From Cyanobacteria bacterium P01_A01_bin.123 (GTDB lineage: Bacteria > Cyanobacteriota > Cyanobacteriia > Phormidesmidales > Phormidesmidaceae), in assembly GCA_039815185.1 (NCBI GenBank), contig JBCBZT010000023.1, positions 1-64,000 of the forward strand: 64,000 bases of DNA. Direction: 5' to 3'. Below, piece after piece: positions 2,415 to 10,425 of the stretch. A model generated the notes under the pieces. It made no database searches. It was not told where the DNA came from and worked only from the letters and a program-made list of their open reading frames with translations. A program made the translations under genes and the position numbers. Within the stretch, counting starts at the first letter, position 1. The number at the start of each line of letters is the position of its first letter.

Positions 2415-3995
2415 TCATGAAAAGTCGTATAGCCTCACCCTAACATCAGGATATTTTACAGTTTCCAAAGGCTTTCCCAGCTGCTTCAACCATTGAATAA
2501 TCGCAGCCTCGCTATCAGGGTGTTTACGTGCTGCCAGCACTATCCATATCCGCTTTCTGTCAAGCTGATCTGCCTTTAATGCCGTTAAGGCTTGCTGATA
2601 CTGTTCCAGATTGCCTGCTTCCAGGTCGTTCAATTCAACATCACTCAGTTGATTCATCATAGTATCTGCCATTGGCAAGTCAAACCGGCTGAAATAGTAA
2701 TGAAACTGTAGGTCTGCCGATGTAAAAACATGGAGCTTATTGCCTGGCTGCCAATGGTTGTCAATGTACGCGATCGCTGGTCTGACATGATCAAAATGGA
2801 GTCGAGTTGGCCTGATAAAATTGTTTAACGCTTGTCCCAGGGGCATTACCAACAGCCCCACTGCGACTACAGCACTGATCATTTTTAACGCTTGAGGCCG
2901 TTTGTGCCATTGCCTTAGCCAAAACACAATGCCGTCTGCCAAAATCGCAAGTCCAAAAGGGACTAAAAATAGAATCAGCCGATCCCTAAAAGGGTACTGA
3001 TGCAGATAGGCAGCGCATAGTGTCACTGCAAACGGCCCGCTCAGGTATATCAGCCGTAGCCGATTTGTCCGATATAGGTGTATGCAGCCGGTTACAAAGG
3101 CCACCATTGCAACAGCATCAGTGATAGCGACAAACCCTAAAGGGCGGTGAAAGAAACGTCCAAAGGAATCAACCAGCCACAGGAGGTCGTACCAGCCACT
3201 GGGATAACGTTCTGCCCAATTCTCTGCCAGACTGGTTTCCGCCAACGTGTTGCGTATAATCCTAAAATAAAGACCGCTAAAGCTGGCAATCCATCCTGCA
3301 TACAGAGGCAGTCGTCTGAGCAGAAACGCTCGCAGTTCTGACCAGGATGATTTCCACAGCGACAGCTTGACTAAGTTGGCCGCTTCTACACCGGCAATTA
3401 TAAAGATACTGGGGTACGATAGCCAGATGCCTACTATCCCCAGGCTACCTGCAGTGAGCAGTTGACTCAGCCTTGGCCTTAAGGTATTTAGGGAGGCCAC
3501 TGTCATAAACAGCAATAATCCGAGGGCCATGTCCCAGCTATAGGGCTTGATTTCAGCTGCAAAGTAAACAAGGTACTCAAGCGTGCCGAGCAGCATCATC
3601 GTAATTGGTCTCGCCCACCCTTGAGTAAAGGACTGAGTGAAGCGATAGCAAGCTATTAATGAGAGTAGCCCCCCCAGTAGCGGAAACAGCCGCAGCGCAT
3701 ATTCACTATTTCCCCAGGTTTCGAGAGCAAATTTCTCAATCCACAAAAACAGGGGGGGCGCGGCCTGATTGTAAGTTAGTGCGTTGAGCAGGTCGATGTA
3801 GCCGCGCTCCATCAGGTTGAGCACGAGAGCCGCCTCATCAAACCAGAGTGAACGATTGCTGAAGTATAACCCTAATCTCATCACCACTCCTATTACCAGC
3901 CCCAGCAGAGAACAAATCTCTAACCAGCGGGATAGGGGGTAGGTGGGCAAGGGTAGCTTACGAACAAACATGGTTTGACTAGCATGATGTTGCAT
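2415..3995 (-). CDS. GT-C (PMT/ArnT-like, GT39-like) membrane glycosyltransferase
   Basis: RSLWFDEA, APPLF, EYALRLFP and EIKPYS motifs; many transmembrane segments. Confidence 0.8.
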   Translation of the reverse strand: MQHHASQTMFVRKLPLPTYPLSRWLEICSLLGLVIGVVMRLGLYFSNRSLWFDEAALVLNLMERGYIDLLNALTYNQAAPPLFLWIEKFALETWGNSEYALRLFPLLGGLLSLIACYRFTQSFTQGWARPITMMLLGTLEYLVYFAAEIKPYSWDMALGLLLFMTVASLNTLRPRLSQLLTAGSLGIVGIWLSYPSIFIIAGVEAANLVKLSLWKSSWSELRAFLLRRLPLYAGWIASFSGLYFRIIRNTLAETSLAENWAERYPSGWYDLLWLVDSFGRFFHRPLGFVAITDAVAMVAFVTGCIHLYRTNRLRLIYLSGPFAVTLCAAYLHQYPFRDRLILFLVPFGLAILADGIVFWLRQWHKRPQALKMISAVVAVGLLVMPLGQALNNFIRPTRLHFDHVRPAIAYIDNHWQPGNKLHVFTSADLQFHYYFSRFDLPMADTMMNQLSDVELNDLEAGNLEQYQQALTALKADQLDRKRIWIVLAARKHPDSEAAIIQWLKQLGKPLETVKYPDVRVRLYDFS

Positions 3996-4042: not shown

Positions 4043-5743
4043 CTAGCTTTCAATCATCACGACCCGTTGTTGCAACTTTTGCAGATAGTATTTGCTGGCA
4101 CCGTCATGAGGATTGATGTTTAAGCAAGCTTTGAATTCAGCTTCAGCGTCACACCAGCGTTGTTCGTCAAAGGTCGAGAGGGCGGCTTCAAAGCGATCGC
4201 GCAATTCCAGCCGATCAGCACTCAATTCACCGACTGCTCCCAGCAGTTCGTAAACCCAGACAACCTCTCCACCATGATTCAGCGTCAGACGATCGATACG
4301 GCGAGTTTCAAAGAAATCGCTGACCAACTGTTGGGTGGCGTCAGTGATCAAGATTTGGGTGCCGTAATTGCGGTTGGCTTCTTCCATGCGTTCGGCCCAT
4401 TGGACTGTTGGCCCAACGATGGTGTAAGACTTTGATCTCTCAGACCCAATATTGCCTGCGACGAGCTCACCAGAAGCTAAGCCAATGCGAATCTGCAGAT
4501 CTGGAAGACCTTTGCGAATTCCCATGATCTCTGGCAGCATTCGTCGCAGTTTGGTGAGCTGGCTGGATTGTTCTAGAGCAGCGTAACAGGCGAGTTTGGC
4601 ATGATCGCGATCGCTGACAAAGGGCGGCCCCCAAAAGGCACTGACTGCATCGCCGAGGAACTGGTTGATGACGCCCCCGTGTTCAGTAATCGGTGCAGAG
4701 GCGAGGGTGAGGTATTGATTAATCAACGTCACTAAACCAGTCGGAGTTAGCATTTCGCTGATGCTGGTAAATCCGGCGATGTCTGAGAGAAACACTGTCA
4801 TCATTTGCTTTGACCCGTGTTCAGCTTGATGCTGCTGCTCTACTAGGGTTTCGACGACGCGGGGATCGACGTACTGTCCAAATGTTGCTTTCAGCCGTTC
4901 CTTTTCACGAATTTCCTGCACCATGTCGTTAAACGAATGGGTCAGTTTACCAATTTCATCCTGAGAGGCAATCGGTAGCGCCAAGTCTAGATTACCCTGC
5001 TCTACTTCGCGGGTGCTGGCAACGAGCCTTCTGACTGGACGAACTAAACTGGTTGTCACGAGTGAGGCAAAGGCTATGCCCAATACCGTGGCGCTGCCGA
5101 CCAGTATCCAACTCAGTCTTATCGTTTGCCGTTCGTGCTTTTCTGCGATTAGCGCCGATGCTTCGGTAAACTCGGCCAGCTCTCGTAAAAGCCGCTGGGC
5201 CCGCTGGTCAAAGTCTTCTTCGTAATCTGCCAGTTGCGTATTGAGTAATTCAGCCGCTGCGGTGTCGCCTGCGGCAAACAGCTCAATCACGACAAGACCT
5301 TGGTCGTGAAATTTTTGATGTTCTTCTTCTAAGACCTCCAGGAGTGCTTCAACTCGAGTGAGCTCAATCACCCCTGCCAATCGATGAGAATTATTGACAG
5401 ACTCCTGGGCTAAGGCGATCGCGGCTTCAAGTTCTTCATCGACGAGCTGACCTCGGTCTTCAAACGCAGCTAGCTCCTGCTGTAGCTTTGCCTGATCGAG
5501 AGGCTCAATCTCATAGATTTTGAATATACGTTGGAGGTGAATCTCTTGCTCAAGCACGTGAACATTCACCAGGGCCACCGACTCTGTCAAGGGTGTCAGG
5601 TACTCGGCAATGTCGATTAGTTCACCATTGACCTGTCGGATGCGAGTTGTGCTGAGATAGGTGACGCCGAGCAGTAGGGCCAACATGCTGCTGGCAACAC
5701 CGAAGATTTTGACACCGATGGGGAGAGTAAGGCGGGAGAACAT
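4043..5743 (-). CDS. Membrane class III adenylate/guanylate cyclase (TM-helical sensor-TM-HAMP-cyclase-TPR-like tail); keeps both metal-binding Asp but lacks the canonical Lys and Asn
   Basis: HAMP (PVRRL...DEIGKLTHSFNDM), FGQYVDP, SDIAGFT, NQFLGDA, GNIGS, YTIVGPTVQWAER. Confidence 0.92.
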   Translation of the reverse strand: MFSRLTLPIGVKIFGVASSMLALLLGVTYLSTTRIRQVNGELIDIAEYLTPLTESVALVNVHVLEQEIHLQRIFKIYEIEPLDQAKLQQELAAFEDRGQLVDEELEAAIALAQESVNNSHRLAGVIELTRVEALLEVLEEEHQKFHDQGLVVIELFAAGDTAAAELLNTQLADYEEDFDQRAQRLLRELAEFTEASALIAEKHERQTIRLSWILVGSATVLGIAFASLVTTSLVRPVRRLVASTREVEQGNLDLALPIASQDEIGKLTHSFNDMVQEIREKERLKATFGQYVDPRVVETLVEQQHQAEHGSKQMMTVFLSDIAGFTSISEMLTPTGLVTLINQYLTLASAPITEHGGVINQFLGDAVSAFWGPPFVSDRDHAKLACYAALEQSSQLTKLRRMLPEIMGIRKGLPDLQIRIGLASGELVAGNIGSERSKSYTIVGPTVQWAERMEEANRNYGTQILITDATQQLVSDFFETRRIDRLTLNHGGEVVWVYELLGAVGELSADRLELRDRFEAALSTFDEQRWCDAEAEFKACLNINPHDGASKYYLQKLQQRVVMIES

Positions 5744-5825
5744 GGAGAGTGGGGTGGTGGGTAATGTTGGATTTTAGATTTTGAGTTGGGCGTCGTTAGC
5801 GGTTACTTTTAACCTGCGCTTCTCC

Positions 5826-7616
5826 CTACTTTTCCGTCAGCTGCCAAATGCCTTGCCAGTCTTCACCGGGTGGGTTTTGTCTTAGCAGTTCTAAACGCTC
5901 GAGGAATAGGGCTGCGGGGCGATCGCTGGGGAGCAGTGCAAGGCAGGCTTCAAAGTGAGATTGGGCAATGTTCCATTGTTGATTGCGGTAGGCAGTGAGT
6001 CCTTGCTCGAAGGTGTCGCGGACGGTGAGGACAGGATTGGCAGTGGTGCCTTTGTGGCCGAGTAGCTCGTAGATGCGGATGGGTTCTTCTTTGCCCAGCA
6101 CTTGAATTAGGTCGATTTCTCGGGTTTCCATGACCTCAGCTACCTGGGTTTGGGTCGCGCCGGTCATCAAAATAGGTACGTCATATTGTTTGCTGCTGCC
6201 TTTGAGGCGTGAGGCGGTGTTAACGGTGTCGCCCATGACGGTGTAAGACTTAGCCGAATCTGACCCCATGTTGCCGACTACCAGCGCCCCAGTGGCGATA
6301 CCGATGGTGAGATGGAGGTCAGGGATGGGGCGATCGCCTGCAAACTTAGCCATCAATTGCTGTAAGCTATCGAGGCAATTCCGTTGAGCGATCGCGGCTT
6401 CACAGGCCAATACGGCGTGGTTTCGATCTTGGCTAAAGGGCGGCCCCCAGAAGCCCATGACCATCGTGCCGATGAACTTGTCAATCACCCCATCGTGGGT
6501 TGAAACTGGCGCAGCCAGGAGGCTTAGATAGGTGTTGATAAACTGTACGAGGTCATCGGGCGGCAGGCTTTCAGCAAAGGTACTGACCCCAGCTAGGTCA
6601 GCAAAAAAGACGGTCATCACTTGGCGTTCTCCGGCGATCGCAGTTTCGGTTGAAGCGGTCATTAAACTCCGAACAATGCGGGGATCGACGTATTTACCAA
6701 AGGTGTCTTCTAGCCGAGCTTTGAGCCGAATTTCTTGCATCATGCCGTTGAAGGCTCGGGCTAGGGTGCCAACTTCATCACGGCTGGTGACCTCCAGTTG
6801 GGTATCTAGGTTGCCATCGCGGACGGCTTGCAAACTGCGAGTTAGATTGCGGACGGGGCGGACTAGACCAACGGTAATCAAAAAGGCATAGCAAAGGCCA
6901 AATCCAGTGGCGATCGCAGCAGTGACGATACTCAACGTTTGCACGGTTTGTTGGTGACGTTGCCCTGATTGAGCGGCGCGGACGGTAAACGCTTCTAGCT
7001 CCAAAAAGATTTCGTTGATTGCCTGGTTGAAGTTTTCTTCTTCCTCAATCAGCTGGTCTCCGAGCTGACGGGCAGTTTCTAAGTCCCCAGCTTCTAGGTG
7101 CTCCAAGATAGTGACTGCATGGCTTTGAAATCGCTGGTGTTCTGCTTCAATTTCTGTCAGCATGGGTGCAACTTTGGCCCACTCATCGCGATGGGTCGTG
7201 ATCTGGGGTTGGGCCAGGGCCAACTGGGTTAACTCAATGGCATCCCGCAGTTCTTGATCGACGGCTTCGCCCCGGTTTTCAAATTTTTGCTTTTCGCTGC
7301 GAATTTGCGTCAGCGGCGGCGGCTCAATTTCGTAGAGATACTGAATCCGTTCGAAGTGGAGCTCTTGCTCTAGGGCATGCACATCAACTTCTGCGACCAA
7401 ATCGGTGATCGGCAGGGCATAGTCGGCTAGGGCCGTAATTTCTTCGTTGACCCGCCGTAGACGGTTGGCTGAGGTCGCCACCACAAAGATCAGCAGCGCC
7501 AGCAAACTGGTGGCAATGCCAAAAATCTTGAAGCCGATAGACAGTCCCTGGGGCGATCGCGCCAGCGCTGACGGGGCAGTTTGCGGTCTGTGGGTCTCAA
7601 TCGAAGATTGTGCCAT
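5826..7616 (-). CDS. Membrane class III adenylate cyclase paralogue; keeps Lys/Thr/Asn/Arg but the second metal-binding Asp is Thr
   Basis: HAMP (DEVGTLARAFNGM), FGKYVDP, ADLAGVS, DKFIGT, YTVMGDTVNTASR, C-terminal W-x-G-x-W-x-LTEK. Confidence 0.92.
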   Translation of the reverse strand: MAQSSIETHRPQTAPSALARSPQGLSIGFKIFGIATSLLALLIFVVATSANRLRRVNEEITALADYALPITDLVAEVDVHALEQELHFERIQYLYEIEPPPLTQIRSEKQKFENRGEAVDQELRDAIELTQLALAQPQITTHRDEWAKVAPMLTEIEAEHQRFQSHAVTILEHLEAGDLETARQLGDQLIEEEENFNQAINEIFLELEAFTVRAAQSGQRHQQTVQTLSIVTAAIATGFGLCYAFLITVGLVRPVRNLTRSLQAVRDGNLDTQLEVTSRDEVGTLARAFNGMMQEIRLKARLEDTFGKYVDPRIVRSLMTASTETAIAGERQVMTVFFADLAGVSTFAESLPPDDLVQFINTYLSLLAAPVSTHDGVIDKFIGTMVMGFWGPPFSQDRNHAVLACEAAIAQRNCLDSLQQLMAKFAGDRPIPDLHLTIGIATGALVVGNMGSDSAKSYTVMGDTVNTASRLKGSSKQYDVPILMTGATQTQVAEVMETREIDLIQVLGKEEPIRIYELLGHKGTTANPVLTVRDTFEQGLTAYRNQQWNIAQSHFEACLALLPSDRPAALFLERLELLRQNPPGEDWQGIWQLTEK

Positions 7617-9057: not shown

Positions 9058-10425
9058 CTATACATCGAGCTGCTTGTGAATATCTGAGATTTCGGATTCT
9101 AGCTGAGCTAATTTTGCCTTCAAAGCCGCAATGTTGGGGTGCGGAACAGCTTCCTCGGACTTTTGAGGCAATCGCTCGACAATTGCTTGAGGCATTTGAG
9201 ATGTTGCTTGAACCTGAAGCTGTCCCCCCTCCGGCTTTTGAGGCAATGGGATCACTTTTTCTTGATCCATGTGAGCCCTTATCTGAGCCTCAGCCTGAGC
9301 CCCTTCTACTACCTGCTCAAAATCAGACTTTCTGCTGGCAAATGCATGGATAAAGCCATTCACATAGGGACTGACTAAGTCAGCCTGGGCAGGACTCAGA
9401 ATTGTTAGAATCTGCCCAAACAGTAGCTGATTCGATAACGCCATAAATTCCCATTTGATCCCAATCGCTGGATTCACCATCGCGAATAAGGGGACGAGCT
9501 CATCTTCAATGGGCGATAGGCTTTCCTCTAAGAAAGATAGCCAAAAATAAGCCTGGATCATCTGCTGATCGCGGATAGAAGAGTGAGCCACCTCCGGATT
9601 ACTAAGATGACCGCGACGGCTGTAGTGATCGGGTAATTGCACCCGCAACTGATTATGAATTTCATGGGCGATCGCCTGACTCTGCGGCAGACAGTGCTCG
9701 ACAATGGCAAATTGAGGGCTATCCAGCGCGTGACGACTAGCAGCCAAGCAGACGCGCTGCCAAGGAAGGGCGACTTGTTCTTCGACAAATCTAAAGTAGG
9801 GATAGATCAATAGCTGTTCTGTCTTCGATAGGTTCTGAAGCAGTAGCTTGTTGCAAAAATTCAGCAGCGTCGTTAAAAAACCCAGGGTTCGCCAGTTTTT
9901 TGAAAGGATATGCTGCTGTTGAAACTCGATCAGCAGCGGTTCTAAATCTATGGCTAACTGTTCGATGGGGGTCATCCCCCAATCTTCCATAGACAAAGAC
10001 TCCCATGCTGAAGAAACACTGCCGTCATGCTCATCTACTCGGGGCGTATACAGAATCTTCACCTGGTCGGCTGTAGAAAGGGAAGACTGTTGATAGATTT
10101 CTGCCAGTTGCAGGTAGATCAGCAAAGCAAATTCGGATAGTCGTCGAGCATCGCTAAGATTGACGACATTTGAAAGGTAGGAATAAAGGGATCGGGTCTG
10201 CAGACTAGCCATTTGGCATTTGATTGCGACCACGTTTTTGGTGATTTTAGCAGCTGTGATGCCTCGACTTACTGGGGATGCCATGTCAATCAGACGTTGT
10301 CGAAACTCGACCGTATCTTCTGCTGCTGAAATTGAGGACAGATTGGGGACGTAGCGTTTTCCCCAAATCTCAATCAATCTCTTGACTGACGGTGTTTGAG
10401 CCTGATGTGATGAAGGAATTAGCAT
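9058..10425 (-). CDS. Hypothetical protein with a possible phycobiliprotein/globin-like C-terminal region
   Basis: 455-aa ORF; HSSIRD...AYFWLSFLE segment; coiled-coil tail. Confidence 0.7.
   Translation of the reverse strand: MLIPSSHQAQTPSVKRLIEIWGKRYVPNLSSISAAEDTVEFRQRLIDMASPVSRGITAAKITKNVVAIKCQMASLQTRSLYSYLSNVVNLSDARRLSEFALLIYLQLAEIYQQSSLSTADQVKILYTPRVDEHDGSVSSAWESLSMEDWGMTPIEQLAIDLEPLLIEFQQQHILSKNWRTLGFLTTLLNFCNKLLLQNLSKTEQLLIYPYFRFVEEQVALPWQRVCLAASRHALDSPQFAIVEHCLPQSQAIAHEIHNQLRVQLPDHYSRRGHLSNPEVAHSSIRDQQMIQAYFWLSFLEESLSPIEDELVPLFAMVNPAIGIKWEFMALSNQLLFGQILTILSPAQADLVSPYVNGFIHAFASRKSDFEQVVEGAQAEAQIRAHMDQEKVIPLPQKPEGGQLQVQATSQMPQAIVERLPQKSEEAVPHPNIAALKAKLAQLESEISDIHKQLDV

Follow-up and report, generated by a model that had tools for sequence, protein, structure and literature searches.

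Two adjacent genes in a 64,000-nucleotide stretch of DNA from Cyanobacteria bacterium P01_A01_bin.123 (contig JBCBZT010000023.1, positions 1 to 64,000; hereafter the window) probably encode an adenylate cyclase that works only as a heterodimer, in which one site is active and the other degenerate. Judged from their residues, the product of the first gene, A, retains the metal- and phosphate-binding half of a class III active site (Asp321, Asp365, Arg419 and the phosphate loop), and that of the second, B, the half that handles the base, the ribose and the transition state (Lys380, Thr459, Asn466, Arg470 and Gly508-Lys509). A first-pass annotation of the window had read the pair as a possible obligate heterodimer, and this reading passed the two sequence tests put to it: the complementary substitutions are kept across clades of 96 A and 86 B sequences, and the two genes are adjacent in 23 of the 27 genomes that carry either of them.

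Both open reading frames lie where the annotation placed them (Table 1) and are indeed adjacent, co-oriented paralogues with the same sensor-HAMP architecture: B is located upstream of A on the minus strand at a distance of 82 base pairs (bp), and the proteins are 43% identical over 542 residues. Each contains HAMP and Guanylate_cyc (PF00211) domains (56.7 and 49.7 bits, cut-off 21.9), which identifies them as class III nucleotidyl cyclases, and Foldseek returned a match to CyaB with an E value of 1e-14. Two transmembrane (TM) helices and a HAMP domain are predicted for each protein, to which the structural models add a long-helix sensor between the membrane helices and a C-terminal helical domain. 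In B the order is TM1, four-helix sensor, TM2, HAMP, class III cyclase, C-terminal helical/TPR-like domain and W-x-G-x-W tail; A follows the same order with a shorter C-terminal tail. The W-x-G-x-W tail, found in 84 of 86 B sequences and 197 of 212 other relatives, is missing in 52 of 96 A sequences, the window's A included (4043-4100), and its loss in many A proteins is a further asymmetry between the subunits. The spacer between the genes, in which no terminator-like hairpin was found, is compatible with co-transcription, and a promoter and terminator scan gave a signal at or below shuffle level.

The division of residues resembles that described for mammalian adenylyl cyclases, in which C1 supplies Asp396, Asp440 and Arg484 while keeping Lys436 and Asp505 as vestiges, and C2 supplies Lys938, Asp1018, Asn1025, Arg1029 and Lys1065 (PMC6005667, its Table 1); passages of PMC2576301 give the same chain assignment and describe each monomer as devoid of the residues that its partner provides. 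All of the motifs cited in the first-pass annotation are present, with both metal Asp residues retained in A and Gln standing in place of Lys and of Asn, and with Lys, Thr, Asn and Arg retained in B, where the second Asp has given way to Thr and the phosphate loop is degraded. The window's A is additionally devoid of the beta7-beta8 Gly-Lys loop. Put together, the composite A and B site comprises seven of the eight tabulated catalytic residues and includes an adenylyl-type Lys/Thr base pair (Lys380 and Thr459), both members of which sit in the donating chain, B.

Table 1. Positions in the window of the two genes, their sensors and their active-site residues
Feature	Position	Strand	Remark
Gene B	5826..7616	-	596 residues; putative C2-like subunit
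B sensor, residues 50-228	6933..7469	-	four-helix bundle like chemoreceptor ligand-binding domains
B ADLAGVS	6582..6602	-	Asp340 retained; phosphate loop degraded
B DKFIGT	6465..6482	-	base-specifying Lys380 retained; Thr384 (codon 6465-6467) replaces second metal Asp
B Thr437	6306..6308	-	at position of beta4 phosphate Arg; position computed from the open reading frame
B YTVMGDTVNTASR	6207..6245	-	Thr459 (base), Asn466 (ribose) and Arg470 (transition state) retained
B Gly508-Lys509	6090..6095	-	beta7-beta8 loop; position computed from the open reading frame
Spacer, B stop to A start	5744..5825		82 bp
Gene A	4043..5743	-	566 residues; putative C1-like subunit
A sensor	5114..5650	-	homologous to B sensor, 37% identical (alignment A3)
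A SDIAGFT	4766..4786	-	first metal Asp321; phosphate loop intact
A NQFLGD	4649..4666	-	Gln361 at base-specifying Lys site; second metal Asp365 retained
A Arg419	4487..4489	-	beta4 phosphate-binding Arg; position computed from the open reading frame
A VQWAER	4388..4405	-	degenerate alpha4; Gln448 instead of Asn, Arg452 present

To place the two proteins among their relatives, homologues were gathered from two protein searches (the best 120 of 1299 and the best 120 of 1260 matches), from the genomic loci and from a profile search (the best 150). Removal of rows that were gappy in the cyclase domain or more than 90% identical left 267 of the 363 full-length rows, and 127 of 143 new representatives (the others being too gappy) brought the alignment to 394 rows. 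Because rows were typed as A or B by four residues, the tree serves as the non-circular test. All A-typed rows but two form a single clade of 96 (support 0.972) and all B-typed rows but two a single clade of 86 (0.941); the two clades are joined with a support of 1.0, and no intact row falls inside either. With the active-site columns masked, the grouping persists for 96 A (0.999) and 85 B (0.99) with a joint support of 0.988, the divergent B sequence P0336 falling outside, and IQ-TREE recovered 12 of 12 A (99) and 11 of 12 B (97) from a subset of 50 diverse masked rows. A single duplication behind A and B is likely rather than shown, since the A and B sister relation received an IQ-TREE support of 91 with one intact row inside.

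The active-site columns divide sharply between the clades. Given in the order A (n = 96), B (n = 86) and rest (n = 212), the first metal Asp occurs in 96, 64 and 209 rows, the second in 96, 0 (Thr in 80) and 212, the beta4 Arg in 96, 28 and 208, the loop Phe in 96, 44 and 206, the base-specifying Lys in 56 (Gln in 37, Cys in 3), 81 (Glu in the other five) and 210, the base Thr in 93, 84 and 209, the alpha4 Asn in 3, 86 and 210, the transition-state Arg in 11, 86 and 211, and Gly508 in 37, 86 and 210; Lys509 is present in 83 of 86 B. Sites outside the typing set (beta4 Arg, loop Phe, Gly508 and Lys509) separate A from B in the same manner, and among them the beta4 Arg and the beta7-beta8 Gly-Lys constitute two reciprocal losses that the first-pass annotation had not listed. 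Its choice of Lys to Gln as a defining loss of A did not survive, as Lys is the commonest residue there in the A clade and a vestigial Lys persists in mammalian C1 too. No A sequence combines the alpha4 Asn with the transition-state Arg, and the full homodimeric-type set (two Asp, Lys, Thr or Asp, Asn and Arg) is found in one chain of neither A nor B. The four residues being nearly universal in the 212 other rows, the complementary losses go beyond what chance would give.

The same data bear on the notion that A and B are simply two decaying paralogues, or the product of sequencing errors, whose complementarity arose by chance. Sporadic degenerate copies do occur outside both clades (5 of 212: P0309, P0316, P0347, P0352 and P0354), and a stop codon interrupts A in genome G413. 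The split is nevertheless common to 182 sequences, the losses partition by chain side, and no member of either clade has lost both halves. No other region is as well conserved as the cyclase domain, whose mean identity is 0.62 among A and 0.56 among B sequences, and the HAMP and dimer-interface residues are retained in both clades. The ratio of nonsynonymous to synonymous substitution rates (dN/dS) of the two cyclase domains is 0.04-0.15, measured in those 3 of 190 genome pairs in which dS is not saturated, and shows purifying selection on both. Conservation thus largely refutes decay, which we regard as scarcely credible. Three of the stray rows (P0352, P0354 and P0347) make up a small separate lineage in which the first Asp is replaced by Asn (and the base Lys by Asn in two of them), possibly an independent type of degenerate subunit. 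The organism's genome encodes 28 cyclase domains; 22 of them retain Asp, Asp, Asn and Arg, and the four degenerate domains other than those of A and B reside in two fused tandem proteins.

We also examined how the two genes are distributed. Matches were obtained in 4 of 41 relatives. Within the class they occurred in 11 of 401 genomes, with exactly two matches apiece, and within the family in 15 of 173; the phylum of G410 yielded 2 of 88 and the order of G411 4 of 301, two of these last four being intact single genes. Related genomes are not independent, and the pairing counts are therefore given without a P value. In 21 of the 27 genomes a single contig carries A and B side by side, and in two more (G121 and G420) A is joined at a contig start by the 3' part of B. 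Where B stands alone (G012, G417 and G423) the gene ends at, or runs off, the contig on the side on which A would be expected, with no A found elsewhere. The large searches scored 3 to 15 candidates per genome, so that distant lone copies could be missed. Pairing entries by the length of their longest contig linked 33 of 83 A entries to one of 85 B entries, a weak proxy that does not enter the count. Pairs are found in cyanobacteria, in the phylum of G410 (locus L033, labelled SAR324) and in the order of G411 (locus L071, labelled Desulfonema). B precedes A in 18 of 19 cyanobacterial pairs, A precedes B in G413 and in the four non-cyanobacterial pairs, and adjacency has therefore outlived a rearrangement. 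No conserved partner gene (binding protein, CRP or phosphodiesterase) accompanies the pair, no protein cluster beyond it being shared by more than 4 of 21 loci. A genome scan returned four pair loci of 80, and none of the 80 loci from a metagenome scan with the B alignment held a gene typed as A or B, so that they were used as a control set and not as a test of pairing. The distances of A and B are correlated (r 0.96, 20 genomes), as expected of any neighbours, and this was not counted as co-evolution. Intact relatives of the same architecture are single in their own loci with the sole exception of L041, where a tandem pair (L041:1071-4586) of the same architecture, both members having all catalytic residues, resembles the state preceding subfunctionalisation. 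No fused A-B protein was seen among the best 150 representatives (the longest of 1027 residues) or in a search covering 1328-3790 residues, a span that lies above the 1100-1200 residues expected of such a fusion.

Modelling of the HAMP-cyclase parts of A and B with ATP and Mg gave a score of 0.76, compared with 0.00 for the best of three controls, none of them a homodimer; among 157 solved complexes 116 attain the mark applied, as do 2 among 215 mismatched pairs. At least 94% of contacts are common to the runs, with a predicted local distance difference test (pLDDT) of at least 80 for the partner, and the modelled interface includes A residues 326-330 and 361-364 and B residues 459-466 and 507-508, as a productive site would need. 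Since class III dimers have already been solved and a homodimer was not among the controls, the score reports likeness rather than binding.

Several observations weigh against an obligate heterodimeric adenylate cyclase. B has no equivalent of the canonical Lys1065 (Leu507 in the window, Val in 68 of 86 B), a Lys found in just 48 of 212 intact relatives, and a Lys two residues past this column is present in 83 of 86 B and 160 of 212 other rows. The window's A still has Asp, Asp, Arg and Thr as well as the transition-state Arg452. Two mycobacterial cyclases, Rv0386 and Rv1900c, have non-canonical residues at the corresponding sites and are reportedly active. In the IQ-TREE subset A and B come out as sisters with moderate support, the intact row falling unresolved inside. 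A lone A occurs in G430, with 226 bp left to the contig end containing no piece of B and no B found in an assembly that is 91% complete. Finally, the A gene of G413 is interrupted by one TGA (L032:5917-9207); B in this genome is shortened at its C-terminus, with a 512-residue frame, and the locus is either a decaying cassette or an assembly error.

The most serious of the alternatives makes A an active homodimeric cyclase with a non-canonical site, tuned through heterodimer formation by B, which would be a regulatory pseudo-enzyme. Such an enzyme would make use of both Asp, the beta4 Arg and the Thr that A holds, of the Lys found in 56 of 96 A and of Arg452 in the window; G430 may carry A alone, and active cyclases with odd residues are said to exist in mycobacteria. 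Yet the alpha4 sites drift freely in A with no fixed substitute (Q36 E16 K10 R9 H7 of 96 at the Asn position and Q32 R11 E10 Y9 T7 at the Arg position), while B retains exactly these two residues in 86 of 86 sequences. This is hard to square with a B that donates them to no working site, and the alternative seems unlikely. As to the first-pass claim that A is weak or inactive alone, the Asn is lost, but the window's A is one of the 11 in 96 with the transition-state Arg and, because it also holds Asp, Asp, Arg and Thr, its homodimer might turn over slowly, so that a residual activity is conceivable.

It could also be that the heterodimer forms without being an adenylate cyclase, and serves for nucleotide binding, produces some other cyclic nucleotide or uses its C-terminal TPR-like domain for signalling. 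The missing canonical beta7-beta8 Lys of B would suit this, as would the existence of a B subgroup with Glu at the base site, which indicates that the substrate can shift within the family. The composite site of the window, with its seven of eight tabulated residues and adenine-type Lys/Thr, argues otherwise, and the eighth residue is non-canonical in most intact relatives too, where the next Lys is retained (160 of 212); we consider this account to have a slim chance of being correct.

In the heterodimeric cyclase that we favour, A and B would together make up a single membrane receptor adenylate cyclase as its two subunits. Their head-to-tail contact would create one complete ATP site, from the metals bound by A and the residues contributed by B, alongside one degenerate site; from the Lys/Thr pair we infer ATP as the substrate and hence cyclic AMP as the product. 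A:A and B:B dimers, each devoid of the full residue set, would be inactive or weak. Once an extracytoplasmic ligand had bound the mixed four-helix sensor dimer, TM2, the four-helix HAMP bundle and the linker helix would relay the signal that closes the catalytic dimer. As to origin, the most likely course is that an intact homodimeric cyclase with this architecture was duplicated in tandem and that the copies then underwent reciprocal losses; they would since have been inherited as a two-gene cassette.

The model of the sensor consists of four helices (pLDDT 94), and its best fold match is Vc1313-LBD (Z 17.4, root-mean-square deviation 1.9, 158 aligned residues), followed by PcaY_PP (16.3), with designed bundles close behind (15.8-16.0). 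No Pfam sensor family matched the B sensor of the window, 4HB_MCP_1/TarH gave weak matches in 2 of 11 relatives scanned, and neither a sensor family nor a ligand could be assigned from the sequence and structure searches. The first-pass suggestion that the pair integrates two ligands drew no support from these data. Residues H80, E83, Q84, E89, R90, H160 and H221 (B numbering) are common to A, B and near intact relatives. Some long A-type proteins (P0077 and P0079, 743-744 residues; P0046 and P0057, 672-685 residues) have an enlarged, apparently duplicated four-helix sensor region.

A more ambitious proposal is that the whole animal design evolved independently in bacteria: the degenerate site would have been selected as an allosteric pocket equivalent to the forskolin site, and the signal read by the mixed sensor dimer would be asymmetric or made up of two parts. 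The pocket was perhaps selected as a regulatory site, given that the position of the lost Asp does not drift freely, with Thr fixed there in 80 of 86 B, and that the phosphate loop is acidic (Asp or Glu) in 48 of 86; an acidic loop would keep triphosphate out of the degenerate site. The A residues that face this pocket are the base-reading Thr (93 of 96) and Lys or Gln (93 of 96). In mammalian C2 the lost-Asp position is a Ser that may be linked to forskolin binding, a link that our literature search did not confirm. We hold the proposal as a whole to be tentative and rather doubtful. A separate subgroup of B has Glu at the base-specifying Lys site and a one-residue deletion (EFVDT; P0190, P0205, P0279, P0320, L004 and L288), and in G443 (L288:5885-9449) such a B is paired with an A bearing a distinct GLD motif. 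By its residues this branch may make cyclic GMP, as a guanylyl cyclase version of the pair.

The closest functional parallels are eukaryotic. The mammalian AC-V C1/AC-II C2 complex (PDB 1CJU) shows the same split, with one active and one degenerate site, clade A mirroring C1 with its vestigial base residues and clade B mirroring C2. The mammalian transmembrane enzyme is a single chain with two six-TM anchors and two cyclase domains, whereas A and B are two open reading frames with two TM helices, a four-helix sensor and HAMP. Soluble guanylyl cyclase alpha/beta (GC-1) is likewise encoded by two genes, its homologous chains dividing the catalytic residues in complementary fashion, but it is eukaryotic, soluble, equipped with a haem/NO sensor and a GTP-specific Glu/Cys pair, in contrast with the bacterial membrane receptor and Lys/Thr pair described here. 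By analogy, A and B would work like C1/C2 and soluble guanylyl cyclase alpha/beta, yet they belong to neither family: their cyclase domains are of the Thr-type bacterial kind, closest to CyaB and Cya2, and because they nest among intact bacterial relatives we infer that the C1/C2-like split is convergent. Nearest in sequence and fold (E 1e-26) are the class IIIb homodimers Pseudomonas aeruginosa CyaB (3R5G), Synechocystis Cya2 (2W01) and Spirulina CyaC (1WC0); these, and about 200 intact four-helix-bundle-HAMP-cyclase relatives with the same domain order, carry in one chain all the catalytic residues that A and B divide between them.

That split-site geometry works in a bacterial cyclase is indicated by Rv1625c, whose inactive D300A and R376A chains are described in PMC4821796 as complementing each other; they have the same reciprocal losses and give an active, ligand-regulated dimer, but they are laboratory point mutants of one gene and not an evolved pair. 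The fungal rhodopsin-guanylyl cyclases NeoR/RGC1 and RGC2 form an obligate receptor-cyclase heterodimer of paralogues that joins two sensors, as proposed for A and B; in the account given in PMC8815786, RGC1 and RGC2 retain all known cyclisation residues, and their obligate pairing is ascribed to the rhodopsin or linker parts, unlike the catalytic split of A and B. Homodimerisation is presented as a fundamental trait of bacterial class III cyclases in sections of PMC4821796, a view shared by passages of PMC9552081, where fused dimeric bacterial species are called unknown; both sources place the C1/C2 division of labour after duplication and fusion in eukaryotes. No natural two-gene split-site bacterial cyclase was found in the literature searched, the coverage of which excluded most subscription journals.

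The organism's own genome also holds two single-open-reading-frame tandem cyclases, at G000:C122:3697-4986 (minus strand) and G000:C109:68946-70274 (plus strand), with open frames of 520 and 536 residues. Their N-terminal domains have both Asp and the beta4 Arg without the Asn and Arg, and their C-terminal domains are devoid of metal Asp, that of C122 retaining Asn and Arg and that of C109 being more degraded. On this evidence they would represent a fused C1/C2-like design, the type described as unknown in bacteria in that part of PMC9552081. Elsewhere among the homologues, P0356 (1027 residues) has three related cyclase domains in one chain and P0334 (783 residues) two. The C122 and C109 proteins may be of the soluble adenylyl cyclase type. 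Around the pair, a co-oriented membrane glycosyltransferase-like gene with a weak PMT_2 match (2415-3995, minus strand) lies 47 bp downstream of A, and elsewhere the pair occurs without it. The window further contains a 455-residue open reading frame (9058-10425, minus strand) with a weak phycobiliprotein-domain match (E 0.002), a Psb28 gene and an open reading frame that we take to be psbA-like; the last two, and the cyanobacterial identity of the named relatives, mark it as cyanobacterial DNA.

If A and B are indeed the subunits of one enzyme, this natural unfused bacterial pair would offer a living model of the intermediate stage through which a homodimer becomes a pseudoheterodimer, with the intact single-gene relatives serving as its control. 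It would also provide synthetic biology with a native AND-type cyclase module, and many bacterial cyclases dismissed as catalytically dead would turn out to be subunits.

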